Assembly: GCA_040220135.1 (NCBI GenBank)
Contig: JAVJTT010000025.1
Coordinates: forward strand, 106,146-170,145
From: Vicingaceae bacterium
GTDB taxonomy: Bacteria; Bacteroidota; Bacteroidia; Flavobacteriales_E; Vicingaceae
Direction: 5' to 3'
DNA: 64,000 nt
Each line of letters begins with the position of its first letter. The stretch's first letter is position 1. The notes below the pieces were generated by a model. It worked only from the letters and a program-made list of their open reading frames with translations, ran no database searches and was not told the DNA's origin. Shown here piece after piece: positions 5,609 through 22,512 of the stretch. Both the position numbers and the translations under genes were made by a program.

Positions 5609-6381
5609 TACCAATTCGTTTGAGAAGAATTCAAATAAGTCTCGGCCATTTTTCGGTATTGTCCTACCGTAAACTCACATTGGCATTCATAATAAGACAT
5701 GATATTCCCTACATGCGCATTATAAAAATCATCGTTCGCATCTTTTTTTGTGGAAATGAATCTGCAGTCTTTTACATAACTTTCTTGAGGGTCACCAACC
5801 ACAAAGGGATCCGCCGGGGTGTCACAAATTTGATCGCCGGCGGTTTCACAATTACTTCCATCAGCTAGCTCTACTCCTGAGCCTTCAAAGGTATGTACCA
5901 ATCCAAAATAATGACCCAATTCATGCGAAATGGTATAATCACTTGGGCCCACACAACTTTTTAAAATGTTTACAAATCCTGAAGTTCCGATTCCACCGAC
6001 CGTGGCTTTACCACAAATGCCATCAACTTCTTCAATCCCTTCAATAAACATCATGTTTATGCGGTCCTTCAAGTCATTTTTAACTCTAATTTCAGGTCGT
6101 TCTTTATCTTCATGTAAAGAATCGTATTGATAGTTAGCTACGTAGTTAAAATCACAGATCTCAAAAGAAACACAAATGGGCTCGAAATGCTGGTTCAAGA
6201 AATCAATGTTATCTAAAATATCGGATTCCAATATATTGGCGTTGCCCGAGCTATCAAGGACAATGTGCGCTACTATGCTGAACTTTTTTTCAATGCAGGG
6301 TAAGGGAGCTTCATCTCTTTTTTGAGCCAAGGAAACAATGCTAATACTGACGACAAGCCCAAGAAGAAATAGAAATCGCAT
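5608..6381 (-). CDS. M43-type (pappalysin/cytophagalysin-like) zinc metalloprotease, secreted
   Basis: HELGHYFGLVHTF zincin motif and signal peptide MRFLFLLGLVVSISIVSLAQ. Probable ATG at 6381; the track start at 6399 is TTG. Confidence 0.75.
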   Translation of the reverse strand: MRFLFLLGLVVSISIVSLAQKRDEAPLPCIEKKFSIVAHIVLDSSGNANILESDILDNIDFLNQHFEPICVSFEICDFNYVANYQYDSLHEDKERPEIRVKNDLKDRINMMFIEGIEEVDGICGKATVGGIGTSGFVNILKSCVGPSDYTISHELGHYFGLVHTFEGSGVELADGSNCETAGDQICDTPADPFVVGDPQESYVKDCRFISTKKDANDDFYNAHVGNIMSYYECQCEFTVGQYRKMAETYLNSSQTNW

Positions 6382-6546
6382 AGGTTTTAAATGATTCAAT
6401 TAGCCGACTTTCAACACACGAAAGTACCATTAATTGAAATAAAAATAAGTGAAGACGTTTACAAAAAATGGTTTTTTTGAAAAGCTGAAATAATAGTACT
6501 TTAGTTGCTTGATTTTTTGATACCCAATCAGCTTGCTGAAAACCGC

Positions 6547-9500
6547 ATGAAACACTTATTCCTTACTCTTTTTAGCTGTCTTCTATTTAGTTCCTTCTTA
6601 TCGGCTCAAACGGCTGATTTTGAAGATGGTTGCGCTCCTTTAACCGTTAACTTCACTCCTCCTCCGGGTCTATCTTCCTACTTTTGGGACTTTAAAGACG
6701 GTACTACTTCCATTTTACAGTTTCCGTCGAATACCTTTATTAACCCCGGATCGTATGATGTTGAATTAAAACAAAGTGCCGGAGGACCAACCGTTGGCAC
6801 CATTACCATAGATGTCTTTACTAAACCTAGCATTCAAATCTCTGCAGATTTTCAAAAAGGATGTCGGCCTTTAAATGTTAACCTATCTGACGTTACCAAT
6901 CTAAGTCCTTCTGTTTCAGTGAATGCTTACAATTGGGTTTTCGGCGATGGTTCTACTGCTCAAGGCGAAATCATTAATAAGACTTTTAATCAGAGTGGTG
7001 ATTTTGATGTCACACTTGAACTAAAGACCAACCTTCCTTCTTGTGATATTACCAAGCAATTTGACGACTACATCAATGTTTCCAATCGTCCAAATGTTAG
7101 CTATATCACCAATCCAAGTAACGCCTCTGCTTGTTCGGCTCCTTTAACCGTTAGCTTCACCAACAATTCCTCTTCAACACACCCATTGAGCTACCAATGG
7201 AGCATGGGAAATGGCAGCAGTTTTAACACTACCAACCCACCGGATCAAACATACAGTACGGAAGGTGATTTTCCAGTTAAGTTAATTGCTATAGACACCA
7301 ATAACTGCGCTGATTCAAACATTCGAATAGTTTCTATTGGCTCTCCAAAAATAAACTTGGATGTGCCAGATACTTTTTGTTTGAACGCCCCAGATACCAT
7401 ATTCAATAGGTCTTCTAGTGGCAGTGTTTTTTGGGACTTTGGTGCTGACCATACTGTAGAAGGATATCATAACTTTAGAAATCCAATAATAAAATACAGC
7501 ACTCCAGGTACTAAAACCATTACTTTTAATGTGGCAGTGGGTGCCTGTGTTGCCGACACCACTTTTACGGTTTTTGTAGCAGATGCCAGTGCCGACTTTG
7601 CTTCCTCTCCCACTTTTGCCTGTTCTTTGCCTTATACCGTCAGTTTTACGCCATCTGCTAGCAACGGAACATTCAATTGGATTTTTGGCGATAGCAGTAT
7701 GTCCTCTCAACAGAACCCATCAGTTACTTATCCTATCATTGACGAATCACCTTATGTAATTCACAAGACTGAAGAGTTCGAAACTACTCTCATTTATACT
7801 GCAACAAATGGTTGCCAAGACACCATTAGAAAAAAAGACACCCTTTATCGCCCAACAGCTTTAATGATGCCAGATCGGGTGAAAGGATGTGTACCCTTAA
7901 CAGTGACTTTTTCAGACTCTAGCTTTTACTATCCAACTGATACCCTTGAACAATGGGAGTGGATCTTTGGAGATGGAAATTCTACCGTAAAGATGGACTC
8001 TACTGACGTTACGCATACTTACAGTATGACGGGAAAATACTGGGCCTATTTAGTGGTTACCAATGAAACCGGATGTGTAGATACTTCCTATCGCACCCAA
8101 ATAAGGGTTGGCGATGTAATGAGTCCTGATTTCACGGTAGACTTGAGTAATGTTTGTGTGGGTGACAGCGTGCAGTTTAATGACATTACCCCTGCTCCAT
8201 TAGGCGACAGTATAGATACTTGGAACTTCAATACGGAGAGCAACCGAATGTTTAGTTGCTTTCAAAGCTCTTCACCCAAGTGGGCCTATGACCGAGAAAG
8301 TGGTGGCCAAGATGTGACCATGACAGTTGGTTTCAATGGCTGCTACTCGAGCGTTAATAAAAGCAATCTAGTCAATGTAAGTGGTCCCGTGGCATTTATC
8401 AATTTTAAAACATTTTGCGACGACCCCTTAAGTGTACAGTTTTACGACAGCAGTCTAAATGCAACTTCTGTACTTTGGGACTTTGGAGACGGCACTACCT
8501 CCACAGCTACCGATCCATTTCATACTTATGCTAGTACAGGCGATTATACCGTAAGCCTACAAGCCGAAAACCCCGGCTCTAATTGTCCGGTAAACATCCA
8601 AACCACTGAAATAAACATTCGCGATATAAAAGCCGACTTTTCCGTTATTCCCGAAGCTTGTTATGGAGTTGAACACCAATTTGATGCTTCAGCTTCTGTA
8701 GATGTGTATGAGAATTGCTATCGTGGTTATAATTGGACTTTTGAAGATAGTACTATGCGTCCAATTACTACATCTTCCCCAATTATAAGGCCAAGGTTCT
8801 TTAATAATGGTTTTCAAGAAATCACTCTGGTTACCACAGATATAAACGGCTGTTTGGATACAGCATCCAAAGTCATTGAAGTATTTCAGCCACTTGCTGA
8901 TTTTAGCATTGACGACAATACCGTTTGTGCTCCTACCACGGTTAACTTTTCTGACTTATCGACTGCCGACACCACCATTGTTGGGTGGGAGTATCGCATC
9001 AATGACAACGACACCTTGTTCACTCAAAACCCTTCTTATTTGTTTGACTCTTTCCAGCCTATCAATGAAGTGATGTTCATTGTAAAAGACAGTTTAGGTT
9101 GTCAGGATACTGCTTTCAAGAATGTTGACATGTACGAGCCGATAACCAACTATACTGTAAACGATAGAACGGTTTGCTTGGGCGACCAAACTGATTTTAC
9201 CGCAACTGACTTTACCACTCAGGGTTCAAACCTAAATTTTAGATGGGTGTTTGGCAATGGAGACACTTCCTTTCTGCAAAACCCCTCTTTAGTTTATGGA
9301 ACATCCGGTAACTATACGGTTGAGCTTTTAATTGAAGAAGTAGCAACTGCTTGCACTAATCTGTATCAAGAGACAATTGATGTTGTAGAATACCCTGTGG
9401 CCGATTTTACCATTCCTAATTATACTTCGAAGTACTTATGTCAAGGAACAGTTCAGTTTAACAATACAAGTACTTCAGTACAACCACTGCAATACAGCTG

Positions 9501-10914
9501 GGATTTCGGCAATGGAAAAACTTCTGTTTTTGAAGACCCGGGAACGAGTTACCTAAGCAATGGTAATTACCAAGTCAGTCTGGCGGTTCAGATGAACCAA
9601 CCTTACGGTTGTGCCGATACTACTACAGAAACGGTTCGTATTCAAAGTCCTCAAGGCGATTTCCTGACCGATTTACACGGAGATACCATCTGCCGCTTAG
9701 AGTCAGTCTTTTTTACTCTAAAAGACACGGTAGATTTAGAGTATTTTAAATGGGAGTTTGGAGATGGTGATACCTTGGCCAATCAAGATTCCGTATCTCA
9801 TCAATACACCTTTGTTCCCCCTTCAGGGCAAACCATTGCTAAATTGGTCATGTCGAATGCCGATGGTTCTTGTCCACAAACGGTAGATACCATCATCAAC
9901 ATTCACGAAGTAACGGCTGACTTTAGAAGAAACAACGGCATAGATACTGCCTATTGTTTTGCTCCGGTTCAATTAACAAACTTGTCTAACAGGGCTACTT
10001 CTTGGACTTGGAATTTTGGTGATGGAAATACCCAAGATCAAGGCAATCAACTCAGCTATGAATATGACTCAGCAGGAACCTACGACATTACGCTCGCAGC
10101 CCGAAATGACAATTTAAATTGCAACGACAGCATAACCAAAAGAGTCATCCTTTTTCCCAATCCTGATTTCTTTATTGTGGGCGATACATTGTGTGAAGGA
10201 GAGACGGCAAGCGTTAACAGCTCGGTTTCTGAGCCATCTTGGACCTACAATTGGTCGGCTGATCCTACTTCAAATTTTCAAGGAAATGGCACAGCAAGTA
10301 TTTCCACCATTCCTTTGCTTACTACCGAGTATACCTTGAATGTAATTGACACTAATGGTTGTATCGGAGAAGATGTTGATACTGTATTTGTTATTCCCAA
10401 CTTAAACTTAACCGACTTTGACACTACCATAGTCATTGGTGATCGGATTAATCTGCCTGTTTATGCGAATGCAGGTTTGTTCAATTTTACTTGGACGCCA
10501 ACCGATGGACTAAGCTGCTTGGATTGCCTCCCTCCTAGTATACAACCGCTAGAAAAGGTAGAGTACAATTTAGTGATTGCCGATAAGCAAGGCTGCTTTG
10601 ATTATGATGTAGACTTTGTGGTGGATATCCACCCGGAAACATTCATAAAAATGCCAACCACTTTTTCTCCCAACGGAGATGGAGTGAATGATCTTATTTA
10701 TGTAGAAGGTTGGGGAATCAAAGAATTAGTGAGCTACCAAATTTTTAACCGCTGGGGCGAATTGGTGTTTGAAACCAACGACCTTGAAGAGGGTTGGGAT
10801 GGTTCTTACAAAGGCAAGATCCAAAACAATGATGTTTATGTGTTTAAAGTATTGGTAAACACTTGGCGCGACGAGGAAAAGACTTTAGAAGGCTACATTA
10901 ATTTAGTTCGCTAG
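6547..10914 (+). CDS. Giant PKD-repeat surface protein with T9SS type B (gliding-motility-associated) C-terminal domain
   Basis: ATG at 6547 gives MKHLFLTLFSCLLFSSFLSAQ. More than 12 repeats of the pattern F.D.S......W.FGDG.TS....P.H.Y...G.Y.V.L. C-terminus TFSPNGDGVNDLIYVEGWGIKE...FNRWGELVFE...GWDG.YKGK matches the type B CTD. Confidence 0.85.
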   Translation: MKHLFLTLFSCLLFSSFLSAQTADFEDGCAPLTVNFTPPPGLSSYFWDFKDGTTSILQFPSNTFINPGSYDVELKQSAGGPTVGTITIDVFTKPSIQISADFQKGCRPLNVNLSDVTNLSPSVSVNAYNWVFGDGSTAQGEIINKTFNQSGDFDVTLELKTNLPSCDITKQFDDYINVSNRPNVSYITNPSNASACSAPLTVSFTNNSSSTHPLSYQWSMGNGSSFNTTNPPDQTYSTEGDFPVKLIAIDTNNCADSNIRIVSIGSPKINLDVPDTFCLNAPDTIFNRSSSGSVFWDFGADHTVEGYHNFRNPIIKYSTPGTKTITFNVAVGACVADTTFTVFVADASADFASSPTFACSLPYTVSFTPSASNGTFNWIFGDSSMSSQQNPSVTYPIIDESPYVIHKTEEFETTLIYTATNGCQDTIRKKDTLYRPTALMMPDRVKGCVPLTVTFSDSSFYYPTDTLEQWEWIFGDGNSTVKMDSTDVTHTYSMTGKYWAYLVVTNETGCVDTSYRTQIRVGDVMSPDFTVDLSNVCVGDSVQFNDITPAPLGDSIDTWNFNTESNRMFSCFQSSSPKWAYDRESGGQDVTMTVGFNGCYSSVNKSNLVNVSGPVAFINFKTFCDDPLSVQFYDSSLNATSVLWDFGDGTTSTATDPFHTYASTGDYTVSLQAENPGSNCPVNIQTTEINIRDIKADFSVIPEACYGVEHQFDASASVDVYENCYRGYNWTFEDSTMRPITTSSPIIRPRFFNNGFQEITLVTTDINGCLDTASKVIEVFQPLADFSIDDNTVCAPTTVNFSDLSTADTTIVGWEYRINDNDTLFTQNPSYLFDSFQPINEVMFIVKDSLGCQDTAFKNVDMYEPITNYTVNDRTVCLGDQTDFTATDFTTQGSNLNFRWVFGNGDTSFLQNPSLVYGTSGNYTVELLIEEVATACTNLYQETIDVVEYPVADFTIPNYTSKYLCQGTVQFNNTSTSVQPLQYSWDFGNGKTSVFEDPGTSYLSNGNYQVSLAVQMNQPYGCADTTTETVRIQSPQGDFLTDLHGDTICRLESVFFTLKDTVDLEYFKWEFGDGDTLANQDSVSHQYTFVPPSGQTIAKLVMSNADGSCPQTVDTIINIHEVTADFRRNNGIDTAYCFAPVQLTNLSNRATSWTWNFGDGNTQDQGNQLSYEYDSAGTYDITLAARNDNLNCNDSITKRVILFPNPDFFIVGDTLCEGETASVNSSVSEPSWTYNWSADPTSNFQGNGTASISTIPLLTTEYTLNVIDTNGCIGEDVDTVFVIPNLNLTDFDTTIVIGDRINLPVYANAGLFNFTWTPTDGLSCLDCLPPSIQPLEKVEYNLVIADKQGCFDYDVDFVVDIHPETFIKMPTTFSPNGDGVNDLIYVEGWGIKELVSYQIFNRWGELVFETNDLEEGWDGSYKGKIQNNDVYVFKVLVNTWRDEEKTLEGYINLVR

Positions 10915-11720
10915 AAATCAATACGAACCGCTTCACCGGTCAACAAGCCGGGTTTGAAGTTTGGGATTTCTCTGCCGTTAATGGCAATACTGACCGTATT
11001 AGGACCTGATGTTCCTTCGTTTAAGGCAAAAACCACAAGGTCATTAGCACCTCTATTGAGCGAATCCGTGGAAAAGGTGAAGTTCGTTCCGGCTTTTAAC
11101 AAGCTGTGGTTTTCAATAATCCACTGTCCATTTAAATAAACTGAAACAATGTCCCCATCCTCAGCAGCATTATCCCACAAGCGAATAGTAAAGAAGTTTT
11201 GCGAAGGCGGAATACTAACTGAACTGTCATTCACTTCATAAGAAGAAAGGTCTACGGTAGAACAGGAAGTATTAATTCGAATTTGTAAGGTATTACTTTT
11301 TACCCCTAGCTCATTCTCAGTGTTAAAATCTAAAACTAAATGATTTAGCTCTTGGGCTGTGGCAGCATCTACAAAAGTGGCTTCAAAACGATAAGTGACT
11401 ATGTCATCTCCAATGTTTAAATCATTTCTAGCTACTGTGGCAGAAAAGCTCTCGGCTAGTAGTTCTGAATTGTTGCGTCGGTAAAAAACCGGACGGTTAT
11501 TCACCTGATGTAAGCAGTCCGCTGACCGATTATACTGAAAGCTAACTTCAGCTACTATTTTCAAAGCACCTTGACAGGGATCTTCGATACGTTGATAGCC
11601 CGGAGAAGAAATTTTAAATCGCTTACACGCTTCCTGTTCTATCTCTAAATCCACAGATTTGTCGGTGCAGGCCGTAAAAAAAAGCAGCAAAGTAACAGTA
11701 TATGACAGCAGCCCTCTCAT
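10911..11720 (-). CDS. Hypothetical lipoprotein with a C-terminal module shared with the next gene
   Basis: ORF 10911..11813. Likely start is the ATG at 11720 (MRGLLSYTVTLLLFFTACTDK lipobox), 1 nt after the upstream stop at 11722. C-terminal WDNAAEDGDIVSVYLNGQWIIEN...ALNEGTSGPNT. Confidence 0.6.
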   Translation of the reverse strand: MRGLLSYTVTLLLFFTACTDKSVDLEIEQEACKRFKISSPGYQRIEDPCQGALKIVAEVSFQYNRSADCLHQVNNRPVFYRRNNSELLAESFSATVARNDLNIGDDIVTYRFEATFVDAATAQELNHLVLDFNTENELGVKSNTLQIRINTSCSTVDLSSYEVNDSSVSIPPSQNFFTIRLWDNAAEDGDIVSVYLNGQWIIENHSLLKAGTNFTFSTDSLNRGANDLVVFALNEGTSGPNTVSIAINGREIPNFKPGLLTGEAVRIDF

Positions 11721-11721
11721 C

Positions 11722-12882
11722 TTAGCGCTTTTTGTATTTGATTTGCAAAGTGCCACTTTCCTTAAAGTTGGATTGCAAGGTAATGCGGTGTTTCTTTTCT
11801 CCATCATCCACAATTAAAGCAGCGGTGTTGGGTTTTATCTCACCCAGGTTTAAGGCATGCAAAACAAAAGTGTTCATGCCTTCTCTCAAACTTACCTCCA
11901 TCTCGTATTTCTCCTTTTTTAGGCTATAGTTCTCTAAGATCCAATCCCCATTTAAGTTCACGGAAACTCGGTCTCCATCAACCGTTTGATGGTCCCAAAT
12001 AATGATCTTTACTTTTTCAGAACGCACCTTGATCTTATCTCTCACCGCTAGTTCTCGGTTTGAAATCGAGGTGGGTGTAGTGGTATCTTCCACCACTGAA
12101 TCTTTTTGGGAAACATCGACTGCAATCTCATCCAAGTCTAGTTTTTTCACTTTTTCTTGTTTGTCGAAATGACGAATTCGAAAATCAAAACGCAAGTTTA
12201 AAGCAATGGCATTTCCCTTAGAGCTTAAATCGTCTTTTGTAATCTCTTGGGTCACATTATCTGTGACTACATAATTGCTCTCATAGGCTTTTGATTGACC
12301 CAAGTTGTAACGAAGCCCTAAACTTAAAAGATTTCCTTTATAGAACTTATGTTGCACTCCAAGTTCCGGCACCAAAGAAAGGTTTGACTCCTGATAAGTG
12401 GTGGTATATTGTAAGGTTCTATCTATGCCGAGGCTGCTAATGCCAAAGCTTTCGCTTGCTGACGAGTTCGAAGCCCCGTAAATGTTTTGGGAAATAGCAA
12501 ATTTACCATAGAGGTAAGTATCGGTTTGTTTGATCTTAAAGTAAGCAGACAAGGCCGCATAATAATTCCAATGTAAGTTGGTGTTTTTAATGCTGATGGA
12601 AAAATCCTCAGTTTCTGTTTCAAAATCATCGTCGCGCAACCTAACACGACTCCAGTGCTGACCAATACCAGCCTCTATACCAATAACATCAAACAAGCGA
12701 AAACTAGCCGAAAATTGACCACCCATGGTGGGCGAATAGTTCTTTTGCCCTAATAAATTGTCGTTTATTGCAGTGCCTCCAAGTATTCCTCCATGCAGCT
12801 CTCCACCCACATACAAATCGTGTTGCGCATAACTCAATTGCTGCCCAAGCAGAAAAGCAAGAAGATAAAGTAGCTTTTTCAA
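11722..12882 (-). CDS. Outer-membrane beta-barrel-like protein fused to the same C-terminal module
   Basis: TTG start, signal MKKLLYLLAFLLGQQLSYAQ. The N-terminal ~240 aa has alternating aromatic/Gly-rich beta-strand character. C-terminal WDHQTVDGDRVSVNLNGDWILEN...ALNLGEIKPNT. Confidence 0.6.
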   Translation of the reverse strand: MKKLLYLLAFLLGQQLSYAQHDLYVGGELHGGILGGTAINDNLLGQKNYSPTMGGQFSASFRLFDVIGIEAGIGQHWSRVRLRDDDFETETEDFSISIKNTNLHWNYYAALSAYFKIKQTDTYLYGKFAISQNIYGASNSSASESFGISSLGIDRTLQYTTTYQESNLSLVPELGVQHKFYKGNLLSLGLRYNLGQSKAYESNYVVTDNVTQEITKDDLSSKGNAIALNLRFDFRIRHFDKQEKVKKLDLDEIAVDVSQKDSVVEDTTTPTSISNRELAVRDKIKVRSEKVKIIIWDHQTVDGDRVSVNLNGDWILENYSLKKEKYEMEVSLREGMNTFVLHALNLGEIKPNTAALIVDDGEKKHRITLQSNFKESGTLQIKYKKR

Positions 12883-13910: not shown

Positions 13911-14531
13911 CTAGTCTATTGCACTAAGTAAGGGTGCCGCTTTATGACAAAATATAAAATTTGACTGACTCTCAAAAAGTCCGATAACCTCCTCCCTACT
14001 TACGTTGGTTTTTGAATTAGACATCAAAGCTGAGTAAGAGGAGTACTTCCAATCTTCCATTTCATTTGTCAAACCTGCCTCAATTGGATTATAATGAATG
14101 TAATGGATTAGCTTTCTTAAGTATTTTTCATCATCAATTCGCTTTCGCTTGAATGGTTTCATAAAAAGACTTCCTTTTCGCTGATGCACTTTGTTGAATG
14201 CTTGCGTATAAGAACTAAAGAAGTTTGAAAACTATTTACTGATTGCTAAACCATAGTTGAACTCTGCCAAAGTTTGAAACTTTGGCAGAGTTTGGTCTTT
14301 TAATAACTCTGATTTTAGGTCTTTCTCCTCTTTAACCCTTACCAAAAAATGAAAATGATTTGGCATTAAACAATAGCAGAAGGTATCGACAAGTGGACTA
14401 ATGTATTCCTCATACTTTTTTAAGAAATAGCGATAGTTATCATCTGTCAAAAACAGCTTTTCATTGCCATTTGCCCGATTATAAACATGGTAAAGCCCTT
14501 CTTCCTCAAATATTGCTAGCTTATTTTTCAT
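13911..14531 (-). pseudogene. REP-associated tyrosine transposase (RAYT / IS200-like Y1 transposase) interrupted by one in-frame TAG
   Basis: Track ORFs 14232..14531 and 13911..14189 are in the same frame: (14231-14189)=42. The 14 codons between them read FSNFFSSYTQAFNK. HUH motif MPNHFHFLV and catalytic-Tyr motif YIHYNPIEAGL are present. A single TAG sits at 14232-14234. Confidence 0.75.
14261..14291. repeat. REP-like palindrome inside the RAYT coding sequence
   Basis: ACTCTGCCAAAGTTT-G-AAACTTTGGCAGAGT, with 15-nt perfect arms. Its core CTGCCARRGTTT resembles the REP arms at 14601-14633. It encodes LPKFQTLAEF, ~30 nt upstream of the premature TAG. Confidence 0.6.
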
Positions 14532-14542
14532 TTGTAGATTTC

Positions 14543-14633
14543 AGACCTTCTAGGTTTCTAAAACCTAGAAGGTCTTATCAATTCATCATCATATCATTTC
14601 AGACCTGCCAGGTTTTGGAAACCTGGCAGGTCT
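14543..14633. repeat. Tandem pair of REP-type hairpins immediately upstream of the RAYT gene
   Basis: Hairpin 1: AGACCTTCTAGGTTT (14543-14557) / AAACCTAGAAGGTCT (14561-14575). Hairpin 2: AGACCTGCCAGGTTT (14601-14615) / AAACCTGGCAGGTCT (14619-14633). Both have perfect 15-bp stems, 3-nt loops and shared AGACCT..AGGTTT ends. They may also terminate the gene ending at 14650. Confidence 0.75.
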
Positions 14634-14649
14634 AATCTTATGAAAATTA

Positions 14650-15690
14650 CTATTTTAAATAAGGAACTTGAGAAGTAGAAACATTAGGGACCTGAATAGT
14701 CCTTTCTGCTTTTTCAACCTTGTGCACAATCGCAACTACTTCTAATATAACATTAATTCCATGCATACTATCAGGATTCTTAAGACCAAGATAAAATTTA
14801 CCTCTTGCGAATTCATCTTTTAATTTTACCACCTCAGACTTTATATTCTTCCTGCCCTTTGCAGGATAACACCTCCACTCTGAATCTCTCTTTTGATAAA
14901 ATAAGCTTGCGTTTTCATAATCTGCAAATAAGTAAACATCACAATAATCATCTGCTGGTGGACGGGATATTGAAGAAATTGCAAATTCAGTAGCTCCTGT
15001 TTGATCAACTAAATTTGTAAGCTGAGACAATAGGCTCATTGATGAATTTACATTTTTAATCGCGTCTTTTTCTCTAAACGCAGCTATTTCATAATACCAT
15101 TCAACTGTACCCTTAGGTAGATCTACTTCATAAATAAGCCTTGATTTCCCGCCTTTGAAAGTAGCATTACTCCCACTATTCATATAAATTTCTGAGCTAT
15201 CTATAATTGAATATGGGACATATGCTTCTTTTACCACATACTCCTCTTTTGTGGCTGTATAAGTAGTATCATAAACTGTTTTCCAATAAACCGTAGAATT
15301 GAAACTATCATCTTCTTCCGCCGGAATACGTTCTATCTTGATCTTACCGATACGCTTGCCTAAAGCAGGGTTGTAAAAGCGAAATTGATAGATTCCGGTA
15401 CTGGGGACCGGAATTCTTTTCTGCTTGACTGTTTCTATTTCATATTCTGAAAACAAGGAACGACCGGACTGAAAATCCTTTATTTCCAATTCTTTCAATC
15501 CTTTCTTTCGCTTTTCTTCAAAAGTGAGCACTATCTCATCGCCTGCTTTGAAGCCTAAGTAAATAAACTCCTCACTTAAGGCCCCAATTTTGGTGGTTTG
15601 GTTGGTTAAAGGGATTGGGGTTTGTGCAAAAGCGACTTGAAACGTAAAACATAAACCAATAAAAAAACTGACTACTACTTTTTCCATCAT
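14650..15690 (-). CDS. Hypothetical secreted protein
   Basis: 346-aa ORF with signal peptide MMEKVVVSFFIGLCFTFQVAFAQ. Starts 14 nt after the DUF2130 gene stop. No motif recognised. Confidence 0.6.
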   Translation of the reverse strand: MMEKVVVSFFIGLCFTFQVAFAQTPIPLTNQTTKIGALSEEFIYLGFKAGDEIVLTFEEKRKKGLKELEIKDFQSGRSLFSEYEIETVKQKRIPVPSTGIYQFRFYNPALGKRIGKIKIERIPAEEDDSFNSTVYWKTVYDTTYTATKEEYVVKEAYVPYSIIDSSEIYMNSGSNATFKGGKSRLIYEVDLPKGTVEWYYEIAAFREKDAIKNVNSSMSLLSQLTNLVDQTGATEFAISSISRPPADDYCDVYLFADYENASLFYQKRDSEWRCYPAKGRKNIKSEVVKLKDEFARGKFYLGLKNPDSMHGINVILEVVAIVHKVEKAERTIQVPNVSTSQVPYLK

Positions 15691-15704
15691 AACTAATATT
15701 GGAT

Positions 15705-16976
15705 TTATTCTAATTCTTCTTGTTCTTCCTCTTCTTCTTTGCCCAATTCTAGAGCCTTAACGCTTTGCACTGCATTTCCGGCAATGCCTTTAATTGAACC
15801 ATACATATCAACGGTATTGGTAATTACTTTGTCAATCTGCTTTTCTCTCGACTTCCAAATGCGTTGCATGGAGCGCTTTTCTTTTTCGAGGTCATCTTTC
15901 ATTTGTGAGAAACCTTCCACAATAGCTTCAATTTGCATGCGGAAAGTGTTGCTGGTTAAGAAGTCGTAAAGCATGTGCATTTTGTCTCCTTTATTCTCTT
16001 GAGAAGCAACGGCTAAACTCAATTGAATCACAGATTCTCGAATCACGGTACAAAGTCCCTTAAACTCTTCAAAACTGCACACCCAAACGCCATCAATAAT
16101 CCCCAAGCGATCTAATGAGGAAGGCATAGCTTCGCTTACCAAAATTCCCACATCGGCGCCTTTGTCGCGCATATCTGCTTTAAACTTTTCGATCCAGCTT
16201 GGTTGAAAGTCTTTGGTACGTTTACTTTCGTAGTAGACTTTTCCACAATTTTGACGAGAACGGGTATTGACAATTTGAATACAATCTCCGCCTCTAGCGC
16301 CTTTTTTCACTTCTTCAATGGAGTCTAATGGAAATTGAGCGGCCAACCATTCTTCTATGGCAAGTTCCTGCACTTCCCCTTGCATTTGCATAGAGCCTTG
16401 CTCCTGCTTGCGTTTCATTTCTTCGGTCAGCTTTTTTTGGTCTTCCAATTGCTTTTGAAGTTCTCTGAACTTTAATTCGTTCTTGTCTTCTTCTGACTTT
16501 CTTATTTTATCTCTTTCAGCGAGTAATAGCTCATTTAATTTCTTTTCGGCTTCTGCCTCGGCCGCTTCTTTGAGTTCTCCTTTCTCACGCTTTAAACGTT
16601 CGATCTCAACCTTAGAGCGATTTAACTCCTTTACTTGCTCAGACTTTTCGTTGAGTTCTTTTTGTAAGGCTTCAAATTGCTCTGACTGCTCTTCAGACAA
16701 CTTTGACTTCAGCTTTTCTTCAATTTCCTTTCGATCTTCTTTTAGCTGCTTTTCAAGCCGCTCTTGAAAAAGCTCATTTTCCTTCTTTCTCTTCTGCTCA
16801 AACTCTTCTTTTGCTTTTTTTAAGCTATCGGCTTCTTGCTGATACTTTTGCTTTTCTTCGGCTAATTGAGTTTGGTATTTCTGTTTGATCTCATCTTCTA
16901 ATTGATGAGCCAAAATATCTTGCACATCTATAGACTCTCCACAATTGGGACAGTTTATTTGAGTGTTGTCTTTCAT
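15705..16976 (-). CDS. DUF2130-type protein: zinc-ribbon-like N-terminus, long K/E coiled coil, C-terminal PD-(D/E)xK-like nuclease domain
   Basis: 423 aa. N-terminus INCPNCGESIDV, then ~190 aa K/E-rich. C-terminus GEVQELAIEEWL..FPLD.I..VKKGARGGD231CIQIV...GKVYYE250SK252RTKDFQPSWIEKFK matches my memory of the DUF2130 consensus and a D...ExK nuclease motif (16221-16286). Confidence 0.7.
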   Translation of the reverse strand: MKDNTQINCPNCGESIDVQDILAHQLEDEIKQKYQTQLAEEKQKYQQEADSLKKAKEEFEQKRKKENELFQERLEKQLKEDRKEIEEKLKSKLSEEQSEQFEALQKELNEKSEQVKELNRSKVEIERLKREKGELKEAAEAEAEKKLNELLLAERDKIRKSEEDKNELKFRELQKQLEDQKKLTEEMKRKQEQGSMQMQGEVQELAIEEWLAAQFPLDSIEEVKKGARGGDCIQIVNTRSRQNCGKVYYESKRTKDFQPSWIEKFKADMRDKGADVGILVSEAMPSSLDRLGIIDGVWVCSFEEFKGLCTVIRESVIQLSLAVASQENKGDKMHMLYDFLTSNTFRMQIEAIVEGFSQMKDDLEKEKRSMQRIWKSREKQIDKVITNTVDMYGSIKGIAGNAVQSVKALELGKEEEEEQEELE

Positions 16977-16986
16977 GTTTTCAATT

Positions 16987-19401
16987 TTAAGTTACCTCAA
17001 CTTCTTCTTCTGACTGTGACTCTCCAATACTGTTAAGCAAAGCTTGATATTGTTCAGAATCTTCTTCTTTTATTCTTTCAATTATAAGTTTGGCTGCTGT
17101 ATTCATTTCAGGGACTTCAACAACTGTTTCACCTCTTTCGAAAATCCCACTTAAATGCGAGTACTCATTATTCAACCTATCTGTAAATACTGCAGGTATA
17201 TTTTCATTTCCAAAGAACTTTTTCAGTTTATCAATTTGACTTGTTGAATCAGGGTATTTATAGTATAGGTATAATTCTAAAAATTTTCTTGCATTGTTAC
17301 CGAAATTATAAAATGCTGTATAACTGCTATCATCAACATTCTCCATAGTTGAACACTTATAAACTTGACTAAATAAATAATTAAACTCAGAAACATAATT
17401 CCTCAAAAATGTAGGCATTAGTTTTATCACTGAGTTCTTATCATTGCGTTCAATAACTAAGTATCTATATTTAGTTTTAGTCTCCTTGGTAGTATTAGCT
17501 CCAGGCAACCTTTTCAAGTATTTCAAAAAGTTTAAATTATGAGTTGAAATAAATAATTGCTCAAAATCATCTTCTCCATATATCTGAGTATTTATTAATG
17601 TGTAAATGAAAAAGATATGATTACTGTCAAGACTTGAAATAGGGTCATCAATCCAAATAATAGGTTTTTTACCTCTAGTTTCTATATCTTGAAGCTTTGC
17701 CATAAAATAGCAAAATGCAATTAGACTATTTTCGCCTTCACTTAAATGAAATGCTTTTTTATTCTCTCTATGTATTTCAAATCTGTACTGCTTACTACCT
17801 GTATCTTCATCTTCAAACTCAATGGCTTTTAATGATAAGAAGTTATGCTCAAAATAATTGTTTAGTAATTCATTAACCTTATCAGCTCCTTTGCTCTCAT
17901 CTTTCAACTCCCTTTGTTTAGCTGAAATCAGACTTAAAATTTCATCTATTTCAACTTGCTTATCGTCTCTTTTTTTCTTTTCCTCCTCAAGCTTGCCAAT
18001 AAGCGAAGCTATATTAGAGACCTGCTCATCATACTTTATTGTAGCTATGAAGTCATAAATCTCTCGTAAACGTAAATTTTTCTTAGCTTTCTCTTGGTCT
18101 TTACTTAACTTTTCGGTGTATTGGTTAGATTTTACTCGTAACTCTTCTATTTTTTCTATTGCTGTGTCTACTTGTGATTTCACACTATCTGGAGCTTCAA
18201 AATGTTGAGCATTTATAATGTCATTTTTTCTTTTTTCTAATTGCAATATTAATAAACCAAGCGAACTTTGATAATCTTTAATACTATTATCAAATGCTTC
18301 TTTCACAGCTTCAAACTCATCATTATATTTCGAATAAAAATTATCCTTTTCTACAATTTCTATTGAATCTAAAGACTTGCTTTCAATTTTAATTTTTGTA
18401 ATTAAGTCAGTGATTTCCTTTTCCAACTTATCCGATTCTTCATCAAAGTGTTTATCTAATCCACCCCATCGTGTTTCTTTAATTTTACTATTACAGAAGG
18501 CACAAGTATCTAATTTATCTTTGTGTAAATCTCGTCCTTCTTTTACCCATCTATTTAATACAGCATCTTTAACCAATTGCTCAATCTTATCTGATTGAGC
18601 AATTGGTTTTTCTATTAATTCCTTTGACTTGCCGGAAAAAATGTCAAATGATAAAGTCAATTCTTTTAAATCTGGAATATCATCTTTAGCTTGTTCTAAA
18701 AGTATCTTTTCTTCTAATGTTTTTTCTTCATCTGAAATAGGATTAAATTCTTCTTTTTTAACCTTTAATATTTCCTTCTTTAGTTTAGCATTAGTGTAAT
18801 TTTGATCTCCATATTTTTCAGAATTATATCTAATCCCACTTGGATTACCAATAGCTTTTTCATTAAGTTGTGAAGCTAAAGTTCTTTCAGCAGTCTTGTA
18901 TACCGATTTAGCGGTATTATAATTTGTTTGAAGAGATTTTAAATCTTTATACAAAGCTGTTTCTTCATTCTCTTCATTAACTCCTAATTTTTCTTTTAGA
19001 ACCTTTATCTCCTCTTCAATTGCATTATTGTCTTCACCAAGTATGGCAAAGGGTTGAACATTTTCATCGGGATTTATAATGAACTTTAAATTATGTTTAA
19101 TAAAGTCTTCATTAAAAACCCTTATTATCTTGCTGTGAGATAAAAAACCAGCTTGTGTAACATCTTCATTATCTATTATTGAAATACAGCATTCAGGATT
19201 TTGATATTTGTCCGATATAACGCCGGTTTCCATAGCTCTAACAACTCGAGATAGCGTTGTTTTTCCTGAATAATTCCGGCCATAAATGATATTAGTTTTC
19301 TTAAATGCTAAAACATTGGAATCTTCATCAATTACTTCTGAATCCCAGTTAAAATCATTGAATACTGCAAGATTTTTAATATATCTAATTTTCTCTATCA
19401 T
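16987..19401 (-). CDS. RloC-like AAA_13 ABC-type ATPase with Rad50-like zinc hook and C-terminal PrrC-type anticodon-nuclease region
   Basis: 804 aa. Walker A G41RNYSGKTT; ~400-aa K/E-rich coil containing C300AFC303 (18493-18504); LSEGENSL signature; Walker B IIWIDDPISSLD; FISTHN; C-terminal ARKFLE (R-x3-E) followed 40 aa later by NEYSH. Confidence 0.7.
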   Translation of the reverse strand: MIEKIRYIKNLAVFNDFNWDSEVIDEDSNVLAFKKTNIIYGRNYSGKTTLSRVVRAMETGVISDKYQNPECCISIIDNEDVTQAGFLSHSKIIRVFNEDFIKHNLKFIINPDENVQPFAILGEDNNAIEEEIKVLKEKLGVNEENEETALYKDLKSLQTNYNTAKSVYKTAERTLASQLNEKAIGNPSGIRYNSEKYGDQNYTNAKLKKEILKVKKEEFNPISDEEKTLEEKILLEQAKDDIPDLKELTLSFDIFSGKSKELIEKPIAQSDKIEQLVKDAVLNRWVKEGRDLHKDKLDTCAFCNSKIKETRWGGLDKHFDEESDKLEKEITDLITKIKIESKSLDSIEIVEKDNFYSKYNDEFEAVKEAFDNSIKDYQSSLGLLILQLEKRKNDIINAQHFEAPDSVKSQVDTAIEKIEELRVKSNQYTEKLSKDQEKAKKNLRLREIYDFIATIKYDEQVSNIASLIGKLEEEKKKRDDKQVEIDEILSLISAKQRELKDESKGADKVNELLNNYFEHNFLSLKAIEFEDEDTGSKQYRFEIHRENKKAFHLSEGENSLIAFCYFMAKLQDIETRGKKPIIWIDDPISSLDSNHIFFIYTLINTQIYGEDDFEQLFISTHNLNFLKYLKRLPGANTTKETKTKYRYLVIERNDKNSVIKLMPTFLRNYVSEFNYLFSQVYKCSTMENVDDSSYTAFYNFGNNARKFLELYLYYKYPDSTSQIDKLKKFFGNENIPAVFTDRLNNEYSHLSGIFERGETVVEVPEMNTAAKLIIERIKEEDSEQYQALLNSIGESQSEEEVEVT

Positions 19402-19508
19402 TTCCTAAACTTTATCGGTGTTGCTTCATCCAATCTTTCCAATATAACCCCATCAGCATCCGGGTATTTTTCTTTGGTCAGGTTTACTATGCCTACTGAA
19501 GTTTTCAT
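19398..19508 (-). CDS. 36-aa micro-ORF translationally coupled to the RloC-like gene
   Basis: My translation is MKTSVGIVNLTKEKYPDADGVILERLDEATPIKFRK. Its TGA overlaps the ATG at 19401 (ATGA). Below the ORF-track size cutoff; no homology recognised. Confidence 0.3.
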   Translation of the reverse strand: MKTSVGIVNLTKEKYPDADGVILERLDEATPIKFRK

Positions 19509-19586: not shown

Positions 19587-20252
19587 TTATTCTAAAGTAG
19601 AACCATCTTCAAAGATTACCTTTTCAGCTTTCCACACTACTTTTAAATCTTCTAGATCTTTATTTCGCAAAGCCTTGTCTTTATCGACAAATTGATTGTA
19701 GTCAGTTTGAGCATTCCATTTTACTTCTTGTCCTGCAGGTATTGGTTGGTCATAAACAAAATTTAGGGAAGAGATTGGCTCATCAAATAAATTAGTAAAA
19801 GTTATATTACCTTTTACCGCACGAATATTTTTATCAGAGTTATTCTTTATCACAAATTTATAAGTGATGTAATCTTGGTAGTCAACCTCTTTAAAACCTT
19901 TATCAAAACAAGAAACCATTACCACCTTATTTAATCTCTCTAATCTTTCGGCTTCTTCCCTAGCTGCTTTCTCTGCAAGTGCTTTTTGCTCCGCTTCCTT
20001 CTTTGCCTTTTCAACTTTCCACTTTTTGCCATCTTCTAATATTTTGGCATAAGTCATGTTTTCAAGTTCTTTATCTTGAAACTTGTAACGCATCATCGTT
20101 CCTAAAAGTAATTTGATCTCTGTTGAGTCCAATTCATTCTTCATGGCAAGCATATCTTCTTTTACCGTTTCATCTTTAAACTTTTTATCTAAAGGTGATG
20201 AACAAGAAAAAAGTATGAGTGCAATTCCTGTTAATAAAAACTGTTTCATCAT
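19587..20252 (-). CDS. Hypothetical lipoprotein with central K/E/A coiled segment
   Basis: ORF 19587..20303. ATGATG at 20252 gives MMKQFLLTGIALILFSCSS (lipobox). Contains KAKKEAEQKALAEKAAREEAERLERL. Confidence 0.6.
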   Translation of the reverse strand: MMKQFLLTGIALILFSCSSPLDKKFKDETVKEDMLAMKNELDSTEIKLLLGTMMRYKFQDKELENMTYAKILEDGKKWKVEKAKKEAEQKALAEKAAREEAERLERLNKVVMVSCFDKGFKEVDYQDYITYKFVIKNNSDKNIRAVKGNITFTNLFDEPISSLNFVYDQPIPAGQEVKWNAQTDYNQFVDKDKALRNKDLEDLKVVWKAEKVIFEDGSTLE

Positions 20253-20262
20253 TTCAATAAAT

Positions 20263-20466
20263 TTAAGTTGTGTGGCAATCGTTATTGCAGTAATAACATC
20301 CATTTACTTGATCATAATGTTCTTCTGCTTCTTCAGTAGCATCATCGCAATCTTCAAACTCACCTAAATACTTGGCACTAGATGGGAAGTATTCACATCC
20401 GTTTACATGAATCTCATGATCCCCATTTTCCTGTGCTTTTTCGTTTACGTAATATTTTTTCTTCAT
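20263..20466 (-). CDS. Small Cys/His-rich protein (putative metal-binding), unknown function
   Basis: ATG at 20466 gives MKKKYYVNEKAQENGDHEIHVNGCEYFP...LGEFEDCDDA...NGCYYCNNDCHTT, with 5 Cys plus His in 67 aa. Confidence 0.5.
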   Translation of the reverse strand: MKKKYYVNEKAQENGDHEIHVNGCEYFPSSAKYLGEFEDCDDATEEAEEHYDQVNGCYYCNNDCHTT

Positions 20467-22007: not shown

Positions 22008-22334
22008 TTAGATTGTACATATAATTTCACCCATTCTAGAATCAGAAGGATTGTATCCCTCTCTTATTGAACTAAAAGACTCATTTTCTAATTCCAGATC
22101 AGAGATTTTAGTTATTGAGTATAATTTCCAATCAGGTTTTTCCGAGCTACTACTAAACCCACTTAACCACCATGCTGATAAAGTGAGGTTCCCGGTAGAT
22201 TTAAGGTGCCCTAAAGTAAAAGGTTCTACAACTCGCCTGTTACCCTTGTAAATGAAAGAAATAACCTTTCGCTCTTTAATTGCCTGGCATATCAAATTTT
22301 GAATCATATCTACATTATATTTATGTTTATCCAT
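22008..22334 (-). CDS. Small WYL-like domain protein
   Basis: ORF 22008..22436; probable ATG at 22334. KVISFIYKGNRRVVEPFTLGHLKSTGNLTLSAWWLSGFSSSSEKPDWKLYSITKISDLEL resembles the WYL beta-barrel pattern. Confidence 0.45.
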   Translation of the reverse strand: MDKHKYNVDMIQNLICQAIKERKVISFIYKGNRRVVEPFTLGHLKSTGNLTLSAWWLSGFSSSSEKPDWKLYSITKISDLELENESFSSIREGYNPSDSRMGEIICTI

Positions 22335-22512
22335 CACATGCGCAACCTGACCCAACATGACAAGTTTTACTTTTTTCAATACACGTATCACCACAAGCTT
22401 TCCCCGTTGTACAAGTTTTGCAACACTCCTCGTCATCCTTTCCGCAGCTTCCTAATGTGACAGTCATTAGCAATACCATTATTGAAATAATCCTCATTAC
22501 ACTTATTTTCAT
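22327..22512 (-). CDS. Cys-rich small lipoprotein
   Basis: MKISVMRIISIMVLLMTVTLGSCGKDDEECCKTCTTGKACGDTCIEKSKTCHVGSGCACDG: a lipobox followed by 10 further Cys in the ~38-aa mature part. ATGA overlap with the nuclease gene stop. Confidence 0.5.
   Translation of the reverse strand: MKISVMRIISIMVLLMTVTLGSCGKDDEECCKTCTTGKACGDTCIEKSKTCHVGSGCACDG

Follow-up and report, generated by a model that had tools for sequence, protein, structure and literature searches.

An apparently acquired RloC-family gene beside a resident DUF2130 gene in a Vicingaceae bacterium: a possible facultative partnership

We have identified here, in a 64,000-nucleotide (nt) stretch of the genome of a Vicingaceae bacterium (contig JAVJTT010000025.1, positions 106,146 to 170,145; hereafter the window), a closely spaced pair of minus-strand genes. 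The upstream gene encodes a predicted anticodon nuclease of the RloC family and is called AAA_13 below after its Pfam family; the downstream gene encodes a nuclease-like protein of the family DUF2130. The pairing looks facultative, and not like a dedicated new two-gene system. We favour the interpretation that an acquired RloC cassette and a resident DUF2130 gene form a facultative functional partnership, in which DUF2130 may be the source or the processor of the DNA signal by which the RloC tRNase is released, and we put the chances of its being correct at about even. Co-transcription of the two genes, any physical or functional interaction between their products, and all of the enzymatic activities considered below are matters that we infer. 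The pair is arranged as follows, in window positions and with protein lengths in amino acids (aa).

16987-19401, minus strand: 804-aa RloC-family gene (AAA_13), recognised from Pfam, PADLOC, sequence motifs and an AlphaFold2 (AF2) model
16977-16986, minus strand: 10-nt spacer between the AAA_13 and DUF2130 genes, read from the sequence
15705-16976, minus strand: 423-aa DUF2130 gene, recognised from Pfam, an AF2 model and Foldseek

An earlier sequence-only reading of this locus had proposed an undescribed defence operon in which an RloC-like ATPase and anticodon nuclease is tightly coupled to a DUF2130 protein. Both of the Pfam matches that it predicted were obtained in a profile search, far above the respective cut-offs. 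PF13166 (AAA_13) matches residues 26-753 of the 804-aa protein at 446.7 bits (cut-off 36). The PADLOC PDC-S06 model PDLC04887 matches the protein over its full length (residues 1-796, 996.4 bits) and seven further PDC-S06 models match it too, whilst the PrrC model reaches the ATPase part only (residues 501-662, 37 bits). To qualify as an RloC, a protein needs the motifs of an ABC ATPase, an inserted coiled coil that bears a CX2C zinc hook and, towards its C terminus, the motif Arg-X3-Glu-X36-52-His, in which a Ser often precedes the catalytic His (PMC2610378). Every one of these published sequence features is present in the window protein, as the sequence-only reading had held, at the following positions.

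19258-19281, minus strand: Walker A (P-loop) GRNYSGKT, G41-T48, with K47 and T48 kept in 127 of 128 homologues
18493-18504, minus strand: CAFC zinc-hook motif, C300 and C303, at the apex of the coiled-coil insert, invariant in 128 of 128 homologues
17731-17745, minus strand: ABC signature LSEGE, residues 553-557
17644-17661, minus strand: Walker B IIWIDD, residues 581-586
17536-17547, minus strand: H-loop STHN, residues 619-622
17155-17289, minus strand: predicted anticodon-nuclease triad R705-X3-E709-X39-S748-H749, from the homologue alignment

Within the triad region R705, S748 and H749 are invariant in all 128 homologues and E709 is kept in 127. The AF2 model of the protein (mean predicted local distance difference test score, pLDDT, 80) has long helices at residues 126-517, and the CAFC motif lies in the low-confidence loop between them. 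The best match of the model in the PDB is Rad50 of the Mre11-Rad50 complex (E 1e-9), followed by the heads of SMC, MukB and JetC; searching the PDB by sequence with either this protein or the DUF2130 protein gave nothing useful. We thus identify the gene, on its sequence, as encoding an RloC-family protein and predicted anticodon nuclease with a C-terminal HEPN-type region, for which tRNase activity would be expected. Taken on its own the gene is ordinary. Since it satisfies the RloC definition and a PADLOC model already exists for it, it is an added member of a catalogued family, and the locus is to that extent not wholly undescribed. PADLOC-DB v2 has no DUF2130 model. The literature that we found uses PDC-S06 as an annotation label only.

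The second protein is less familiar. PF09903 (DUF2130) matches residues 167-413 of the 423-aa protein at 273.6 bits (cut-off 26.7), covering profile positions 2-254 of 255. An alignment of 87 diverse family members (alignment A6; 34-53% identity) shows the following residues to be invariant.

16941-16952, minus strand: CPNC knuckle motif, residues 9-12, both Cys (C9 and C12) invariant in the 87 members
16365-16367, minus strand: E204, invariant in the 87 sequences
16221-16286, minus strand: D231...E250-x-K252, all three residues invariant in the 87 sequences

The AF2 model (mean pLDDT 85) has an N-terminal beta-hairpin knuckle, helices spanning residues 18-214 that include a coil of ~190 aa, an alpha/beta core at residues 219-300 and a helical tail. 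In the PDB, the best Foldseek matches to this model comprise Hjc Holliday-junction resolvases of archaea, restriction endonucleases, Cas4 and the nuclease domains of DdmD and SPARDA, and those among viral structures include Mrr-like and PD-(D/E)XK nucleases, with modest E-values (3e-3 for the PDB and 3e-5 for BFVD). A 2012 survey placed DUF2130 in the PD-(D/E)XK superfamily and gave its function as 'unknown' (PMC3424549). Sequence and model together indicate a nuclease-like protein of the PD-(D/E)xK superfamily, with a coiled coil and a fold like those of Hjc and restriction enzymes, for which DNA cleavage is the predicted activity. The nuclease-like character suggested by the sequence-only reading is therefore upheld by the invariant catalytic residues, and all of the residues named in that reading (K47, C300/C303, the R/E/H triad, CPNC and D231/E250/K252) are present. 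It had set conservation of the catalytic residues beforehand as a test that could refute it, and they are conserved in the alignments of both families. The literature searched, including that on the rlo genes, held no functional information on DUF2130, PF09903 or COG4487. The family is large, comprising 1432 clusters at 50% identity in an exhaustive search (E <= 1e-30).

The histories of the two genes are separate in this clade. The AAA_13 gene has a GC content of 0.294 and a third-position GC content (GC3) of 0.214, compared with 0.398 and 0.394 for the DUF2130 gene and a GC content of 0.365 for the whole window, which puts figures to the A+T-richness that the sequence-only reading had judged by eye. 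The bin at 18-20 kb is the most AT-rich 2 kb in the window. We compared the window with related loci, designated by L numbers, in which open reading frames (ORFs) were called mechanically. Nucleotide identity between the window and L001 is 85-98% in the 3' region of AAA_13 and collapses across the last ~90 nt of that gene and the spacer, and the DUF2130 genes are ~62-80% identical. On the 5' side, homology among the AAA_13 cassettes starts ~17 nt ahead of the ATG. By this comparison, the recombination breakpoint that separates the cassette from the resident DUF2130 gene coincides with the 10-nt spacer.

The DUF2130 genes tell a different story from the cassettes. The Bacteroidota clade of the family is unusually uniform, with 70-85% identity across Flavobacteriales, Bacteroidales, Cytophagales and Sphingobacteriales, and it tracks taxonomy within Flavobacteriaceae. 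Those copies that are linked to window-type AAA_13 genes are not one another's closest kin: that of the window shares 78% identity with that of L003, a level close to the clade background, and the nearest relatives of the L167 copy are those of other Flavobacteriaceae (92%). We considered movement of the pair as a unit and rejected it for these Bacteroidota, because the linked DUF2130 copies are not nearest kin over either the whole gene or the first 120 residues and the 5' end of the gene has neither raised nucleotide identity nor a co-transfer or mosaic signal. The lowest GC content in the window, the identity break at the junction and the unlinked kinship of the DUF2130 copies together make the AAA_13 gene look horizontally acquired. 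The acquired module of the sequence-only reading accordingly reduces to one apparently acquired gene, with the pair not transferred as a unit among these Bacteroidota and DUF2130 resident.

Traces of a longer cassette are also present. Small ORFs upstream of AAA_13 in L003, L004 and L166 have a methyltransferase-like C-terminal tail, EID.MVY.L.GL.EEEIK.VEG, which recurs at the 3' end of the MmeI-type gene ahead of AAA_13 in L001. The likeness is suggestive of an ancestral order of methyltransferase followed by AAA_13 that has since partly decayed. The sites are these.

L003, 7844-7990: tail-bearing small ORF
L166, 1038-1208: tail-bearing small ORF
L004, just upstream of 8001: tail-bearing small ORF
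L001, 4934-7990: MmeI-type gene

Separately, L009 (6390-6491, directly following the upstream gene) and L048 (7906-8037) each have a short duplicated fragment of the DUF2130 5' end located ~0.9 kb ahead of the full-length copy; these may be scars of cassette exchange.

Within the window the two genes are likely to be transcribed together, since the 10-nt spacer is too short for a promoter and the junction has no terminator-like site. No minus-strand terminator-like site occurs at any of the gene junctions, the sole one lying within the 3' end of the 346-aa ORF that follows DUF2130. Bacteroidota promoters deviate from the sigma-70 consensus. A sigma-70 scan found 21 sites, with no excess over the 22.2 found in shuffled sequences, using a consensus that may not fit a Bacteroidota host; given both the lack of excess and the divergence of the promoters, the scan is uninformative about an internal promoter. 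Within the AAA_13 coding region, at 18571-18608, is a perfect inverted repeat (16-bp arms, 6-nt loop) with a T-run after it on the plus strand; it is antisense to the gene and scores as terminator-like.

The adjacency is conserved beyond this genome, as the sequence-only reading required, and involves several AAA_13 subtypes and DUF2130 lineages. Intact pairs are always co-oriented and within ~25 nt. Amongst the closest AAA_13 relatives (at least 70% identity), DUF2130 also follows directly in L001, where an insertion sequence (IS) fragment interrupts the pair, in L003 and in L167. The AAA_13 neighbours found in a DUF2130-centred census are always on the same strand and belong to two other subtypes distant from that of the window (L057/L067 and L073/L083). 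Further pairs are embedded in restriction-modification (R-M) loci. The L153 pair, in which the stop of one gene overlaps the start of the next, is flanked by type III Mod and Res genes, and in L124 the order is Mod, AAA_13, DUF2130, cut by the contig end. Three loci have the reversed order: L200 and L201, which are near-duplicates, read type III Mod, Abi_C, type III Res, DUF2130, AAA_13 and helicase, and L202 reads type I HsdR, DUF2130 and AAA_13. These three loci are labelled viral yet are rich in R-M genes. Of 35 viral contigs with distant DUF2130 relatives, 3 have an adjoining AAA_13 gene. The R-M-embedded DUF2130 proteins are 31-57% identical to that of the window, those of L200-L202 only 31%, so that the paired lineages span 31%, 57% and 70-85% identity, several AAA_13 subtypes and both gene orders. 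Adjacency thus recurs in distant lineages regardless of order, and adjacency kept over such distance and rearrangement is the usual signature of a functional link.

A parallel case came from the AAA_13 loci. In 15 of them sbcD, identified by its motifs DWHLG, GDVFD, GNHD and GHLH, comes directly after an RloC-like gene, in 12 with a 4-nt stop/start overlap, and in at least 11 sbcC then follows, carrying a CPLCG hook of its own. The RloC motifs are intact in all 15 loci, which form nine groups at 90% identity, with pairwise identities of 44-100% and contig GC contents of 0.36-0.54.

L114, L115, L126-L129, L132, L133, L136, L138, L139, L148, L150, L158, L159: sbcD-coupled loci, with AAA_13 at ~6000-8440 or equivalent

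The RloC literature consulted (PMC2610378, PMC3458546) contains no mention of linkage to DUF2130 or to sbcDC. The RloC ATPase is DNA-dependent and responds to breaks (PMC3458546), and RloC lacks the DNase partner of Rad50 and SbcC, as its discoverers remarked (PMC2610378). Together with the sbcD-sbcC coupling, these properties support a partnership between RloC and DUF2130.

Such a partnership might work as follows. By analogy with characterised RloC, a Rad50-like ATPase with its coiled coil and zinc hook would keep the HEPN-type RNase (R705/E709/H749) silent; DNA ends or damage would switch the RNase on; and excision of the tRNA wobble nucleotide would stop translation and abort the infection. 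In the window the RloC cassette would recently have landed ~10 nt upstream of the resident, conserved DUF2130 gene and would be co-transcribed with it. DUF2130 may then act on DNA ends or on invading or branched DNA, and by doing so create, retain or process the signal for the RloC ATPase, a role analogous to that of Mre11/SbcD for Rad50/SbcC or of the linked R-M enzyme for PrrC. RloC and DUF2130 would each also be able to work alone.

Several observations weigh against a partnership. The two genes are not adjacent in most genomes that carry either of them. In the DUF2130-centred census of 80 species-representative loci, the immediate upstream gene was scanned in 63, of which 4 have AAA_13 directly upstream, or 5 if an AAA_13-like ATPase is counted. 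Conversely, the AAA_13-centred census of 80 metagenome loci includes 64 with at least 400 nt downstream, and DUF2130 follows in 2 of these and is missing from the other 62. Even for the closest AAA_13 relatives, which occur in 8 distinct contexts, DUF2130 is directly downstream in 4 (the window, L001, L003 and L167) and not in L004, L165, L166 and L169. These censuses are samples of 80 loci each, partly non-independent phylogenetically. In L040 and L058, degraded AAA_13 3' ends of 60-110 nt, resembling those of L083 and L073, lie upstream of intact DUF2130 genes; they are visible by nucleotide alignment only, a tblastn search of the sequence ahead of DUF2130 having returned no AAA_13 relic at E 1e-3.

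L040, ~9340-9442: AAA_13 relic, from nucleotide alignment
L058, ~9900-10000: AAA_13 relic, from nucleotide alignment
L047, ~9940-10000: AAA_13 relic (weak), from nucleotide alignment

These alignments indicate that AAA_13 was lost from such loci and DUF2130 retained. RloC of G. kaustophilus is active and toxic in E. coli by itself (PMC2610378). Lastly, because DUF2130 is joined equally tightly to unrelated defence genes, the link is not specific to AAA_13. The tight coupling of the sequence-only reading therefore holds in so far as it recurs in distant lineages, but it is neither obligate nor specific.

This lack of specificity underlies the chief alternative, which we consider a serious contender though on balance improbable: that the two genes are merely co-located. 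A landing pad upstream of DUF2130 would capture and express promoter-less defence cassettes without any cooperation, and DUF2130 would be a housekeeping recombination or repair nuclease. In ~23 of 80 Bacteroidota DUF2130 loci (L005-L084, with DUF2130 at ~10001-11270 in most) a same-strand defence-type gene lies upstream, usually tightly; this tally is an estimate from summary tables of neighbour families. The kinds are varied and unrelated: SIR2-HerA (~8), AAA_13 or AAA_13-like (5), AAA_15 OLD-like (3), RhuM (3), and single cases of Schlafen/AlbA_2, a reverse transcriptase, an SMC-like ATPase and a Bro-N protein, with MmeI-type methyltransferases often one or two genes beyond. Other upstream neighbours are of housekeeping type, such as DinB, DnaE2 and DEAD-box RNA helicases, and downstream lie heterogeneous host housekeeping genes. 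In the phage contigs (L172-L206) distant DUF2130 relatives (30-37% identity) sit in replication and recombination modules beside family A DNA polymerase, helicases, Enc34-type single-stranded-DNA-binding protein, RecT and YqaJ. The uniformity and taxonomic tracking of the Bacteroidota clade, the breakpoint exactly at the junction, the loss of AAA_13 with retention of DUF2130, and the duplicated 5' fragments in L009 and L048 all fit co-location well. It does not account for the L153 pair between mod and res, nor for the reversed pairs of L200-L202, with their divergent DUF2130 proteins, and the DUF2130 5' end lacks the co-transfer or mosaic signal.

Plasmids of other phyla are a further difficulty for co-location (plasmid loci L207, L208, L209, L210 and L212). 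On an Aliarcobacter plasmid DUF2130 is followed after 1 nt by an OLD-type endonuclease and then a UvrD helicase, a Gabija-like arrangement, with a methyltransferase and RhuM beyond; on two Chryseobacterium plasmids DUF2130 lies directly upstream of type I R-M operons; and on a Sulfurimonas plasmid it lies two genes upstream of a reverse-transcriptase-like gene. On a Bradyrhizobium plasmid it follows an AAA+ ATPase, and SIR2 and PIN genes lie at a distance of a few kb; that upstream gene, annotated 'AAA family ATPase', was rejected as an AAA_13. Co-location hence agrees well with what is seen in Bacteroidota but leaves the plasmid contexts and the pairs within R-M loci unexplained. On the evidence of these neighbourhoods, the association of DUF2130 with unrelated defence genes holds across phyla and on either side of the gene. 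We found no report of this association in the literature.

It is quite improbable, in our judgement, that DUF2130 is instead a silencer or regulator which restrains RloC until it is itself titrated away by DNA damage or a phage factor. PrrC-EcoprrI provides a precedent (PMC2610378), linkage is tight, the stop/start overlap in L153 would allow translational coupling, and both proteins have a CxxC beside a coiled coil by which they could in principle meet. Against this, RloC carries its own internal silencer (PMC3458546) and usually occurs without DUF2130 (62 of 64 loci), and DUF2130 persists without AAA_13. Because its catalytic residues are invariant, DUF2130 is more likely to be an enzyme than a mere inhibitor.

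Least probable of all is an obligate dedicated system of two to four genes (the 36-aa ORF, RloC, DUF2130 and the 346-aa ORF) requiring both tRNA and DNA cleavage, which the co-directional ORFs, their minimal spacing and the intact catalytic motifs of both enzymes would fit, but which the censuses have already largely refuted: either main gene usually occurs without the other, the two have distinct histories here, and the two outer ORFs are conserved nowhere. The outer ORFs are these.

19398-19508, minus strand: 36-aa ORF overlapping the AAA_13 start; not conserved, and probably not a gene of the module
14650-15690, minus strand: 346-aa signal-peptide ORF; a local host gene, possibly co-transcribed

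The coordinates of all four minus-strand ORFs given in the sequence-only reading are exact, as are the ATGA in which the stop of the 36-aa ORF overlaps the start of the 804-aa ORF, the 10-nt gap, and the gap of 14 nt between DUF2130 and the 346-aa ORF. Its inclusion of the two outer ORFs in the operon fails, as neither has a counterpart in any related locus. The 36-aa ORF has no homologue in the fetched loci, and we rejected it as a conserved leader or antitoxin since it is not conserved. Searches of Pfam, PADLOC, NCBIfam and PHROG gave no match to the 346-aa ORF, which also lacks a homologue beside DUF2130 or AAA_13 in any fetched locus and was likewise rejected as part of the module. This ORF is a local host gene outside any conserved module, and may be co-transcribed with DUF2130.

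Comparison with known systems places the pair among several relatives. RloC of Geobacillus kaustophilus and Acinetobacter baylyi (Davidov and Kaufmann 2008; Klaiman et al. 2012, 2014) has the same Pfam family, length (~800 aa) and architecture, and lateral acquisition has been described for rloC, as appears to apply to the window gene; the latter differs in adjoining a DUF2130 gene with which it is probably co-transcribed and in belonging to Bacteroidota. PADLOC would already flag the window gene as PDC-S06, a single-gene candidate without DUF2130. PrrC, at the type Ic R-M locus of PrrC-EcoprrI, similarly combines an ABC ATPase with a HEPN anticodon nuclease bearing the same triad, and the principle of an RNase restrained by or coupled to a linked DNA-directed enzyme resembles that proposed for the window pair. 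However, PrrC is about half the size (~400 aa), has no coiled-coil/zinc-hook insert and is always within an hsd locus, whereas the window protein has 804 aa and the insert, and there are no hsd genes among the scanned neighbours of the locus; it is not a PrrC. Mre11-Rad50 and SbcD-SbcC likewise set a Rad50-like head, coiled coil and zinc hook beside a nuclease gene, but their nuclease is a calcineurin-type phosphoesterase and DUF2130 a PD-(D/E)xK enzyme, and RloC has an RNase domain that Rad50 lacks.

R-M linkage deserves separate mention. The survey of ABC-HEPN neighbourhoods by Anantharaman et al. (2013) lists R-M, RhuM and Fic/Doc genes as neighbours but neither DUF2130 nor SbcCD. Relatives of the window gene adjoin MmeI-type, type I and type III R-M, RhuM and Fic genes, with R-M genes within two genes in at least 22 of 80 AAA_13 loci, in keeping with the description of such genes as 'restriction-linked'. 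At the window these genes are absent, with no match to R-M families among the neighbouring ORFs scanned (11.7-23.3 kb of the window). The lack of an R-M link remarked upon by the sequence-only reading is consequently limited to this window, since close AAA_13 relatives follow MmeI-type methyltransferases or their relics and pairs elsewhere lie in type I and type III operons.

The surroundings of the cluster contain further features. The RAYT/REP element noted beside the cluster by the sequence-only reading is present, but its RAYT-like tyrosine transposase is split over two ORFs (13911-14189 and 14232-14531) that score 25.8 and 40.4 bits, both under the NCBIfam cut-off of 80. Two 42-nt REP-like palindromes adjoin it (14538-14579 and 14596-14637), and the unit is probably decayed, a pseudogene. 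A perfect 16-bp hairpin is found at 14260-14292, within the region of the second RAYT ORF. Farther along the minus strand, adjacent and slightly overlapping ORFs of 300 and 386 aa (10911-11813 and 11722-12882) have a similar C-terminal segment (…DGD.VSV.LNG.WI.EN.SL…), a likeness that suggests paralogous secreted or outer-membrane proteins. Upstream of the cluster, a 238-aa lipoprotein-like ORF (19587-20303, minus strand) matches two PHROG families with no assigned function (phrog_31085, E 5e-7). A 142-aa ORF (22008-22436, minus strand) has a weak WYL-domain match in PADLOC (23 bits), and WYL-domain genes also occur near DUF2130 on plasmids of Aliarcobacter (L207, 64-867) and Chryseobacterium (L208, 1013-2002).

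The most interesting by-products of the analysis are the RloC-sbcDC operons and the broader tendency of DUF2130 to lie beside defence genes, and the coupling of AAA_13 to DUF2130 is a new aspect worth testing. A bolder proposal, which we regard as speculative and rather unlikely, is that DUF2130 is a widespread unrecognised defence-associated DNA nuclease which serves as an exchangeable DNA-sensing or DNA-processing partner of ATPase-driven immune proteins (RloC-like, HerA of SIR2-HerA, OLD/Gabija-type). With RloC it would then make up an assembly resembling Mre11-Rad50, perhaps held together by the CxxC and coiled-coil elements present in each protein, through which the detection or cutting of phage DNA leads to tRNA destruction; if this is true, the RloC-sbcDC coupling would follow the same logic with a canonical nuclease. 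That RloC is an anticodon nuclease responsive to DNA damage has been on record since 2008. DUF2130 and SbcCD now offer two concrete, genetically coupled candidates for its DNA partner or signal source, making the partner question testable by simple genetics. Because DUF2130 (>1400 clusters at 50% identity) borders many defence operons across several phyla and has no PADLOC-DB v2 model, it is also a reasonable new candidate for defence-system screens.

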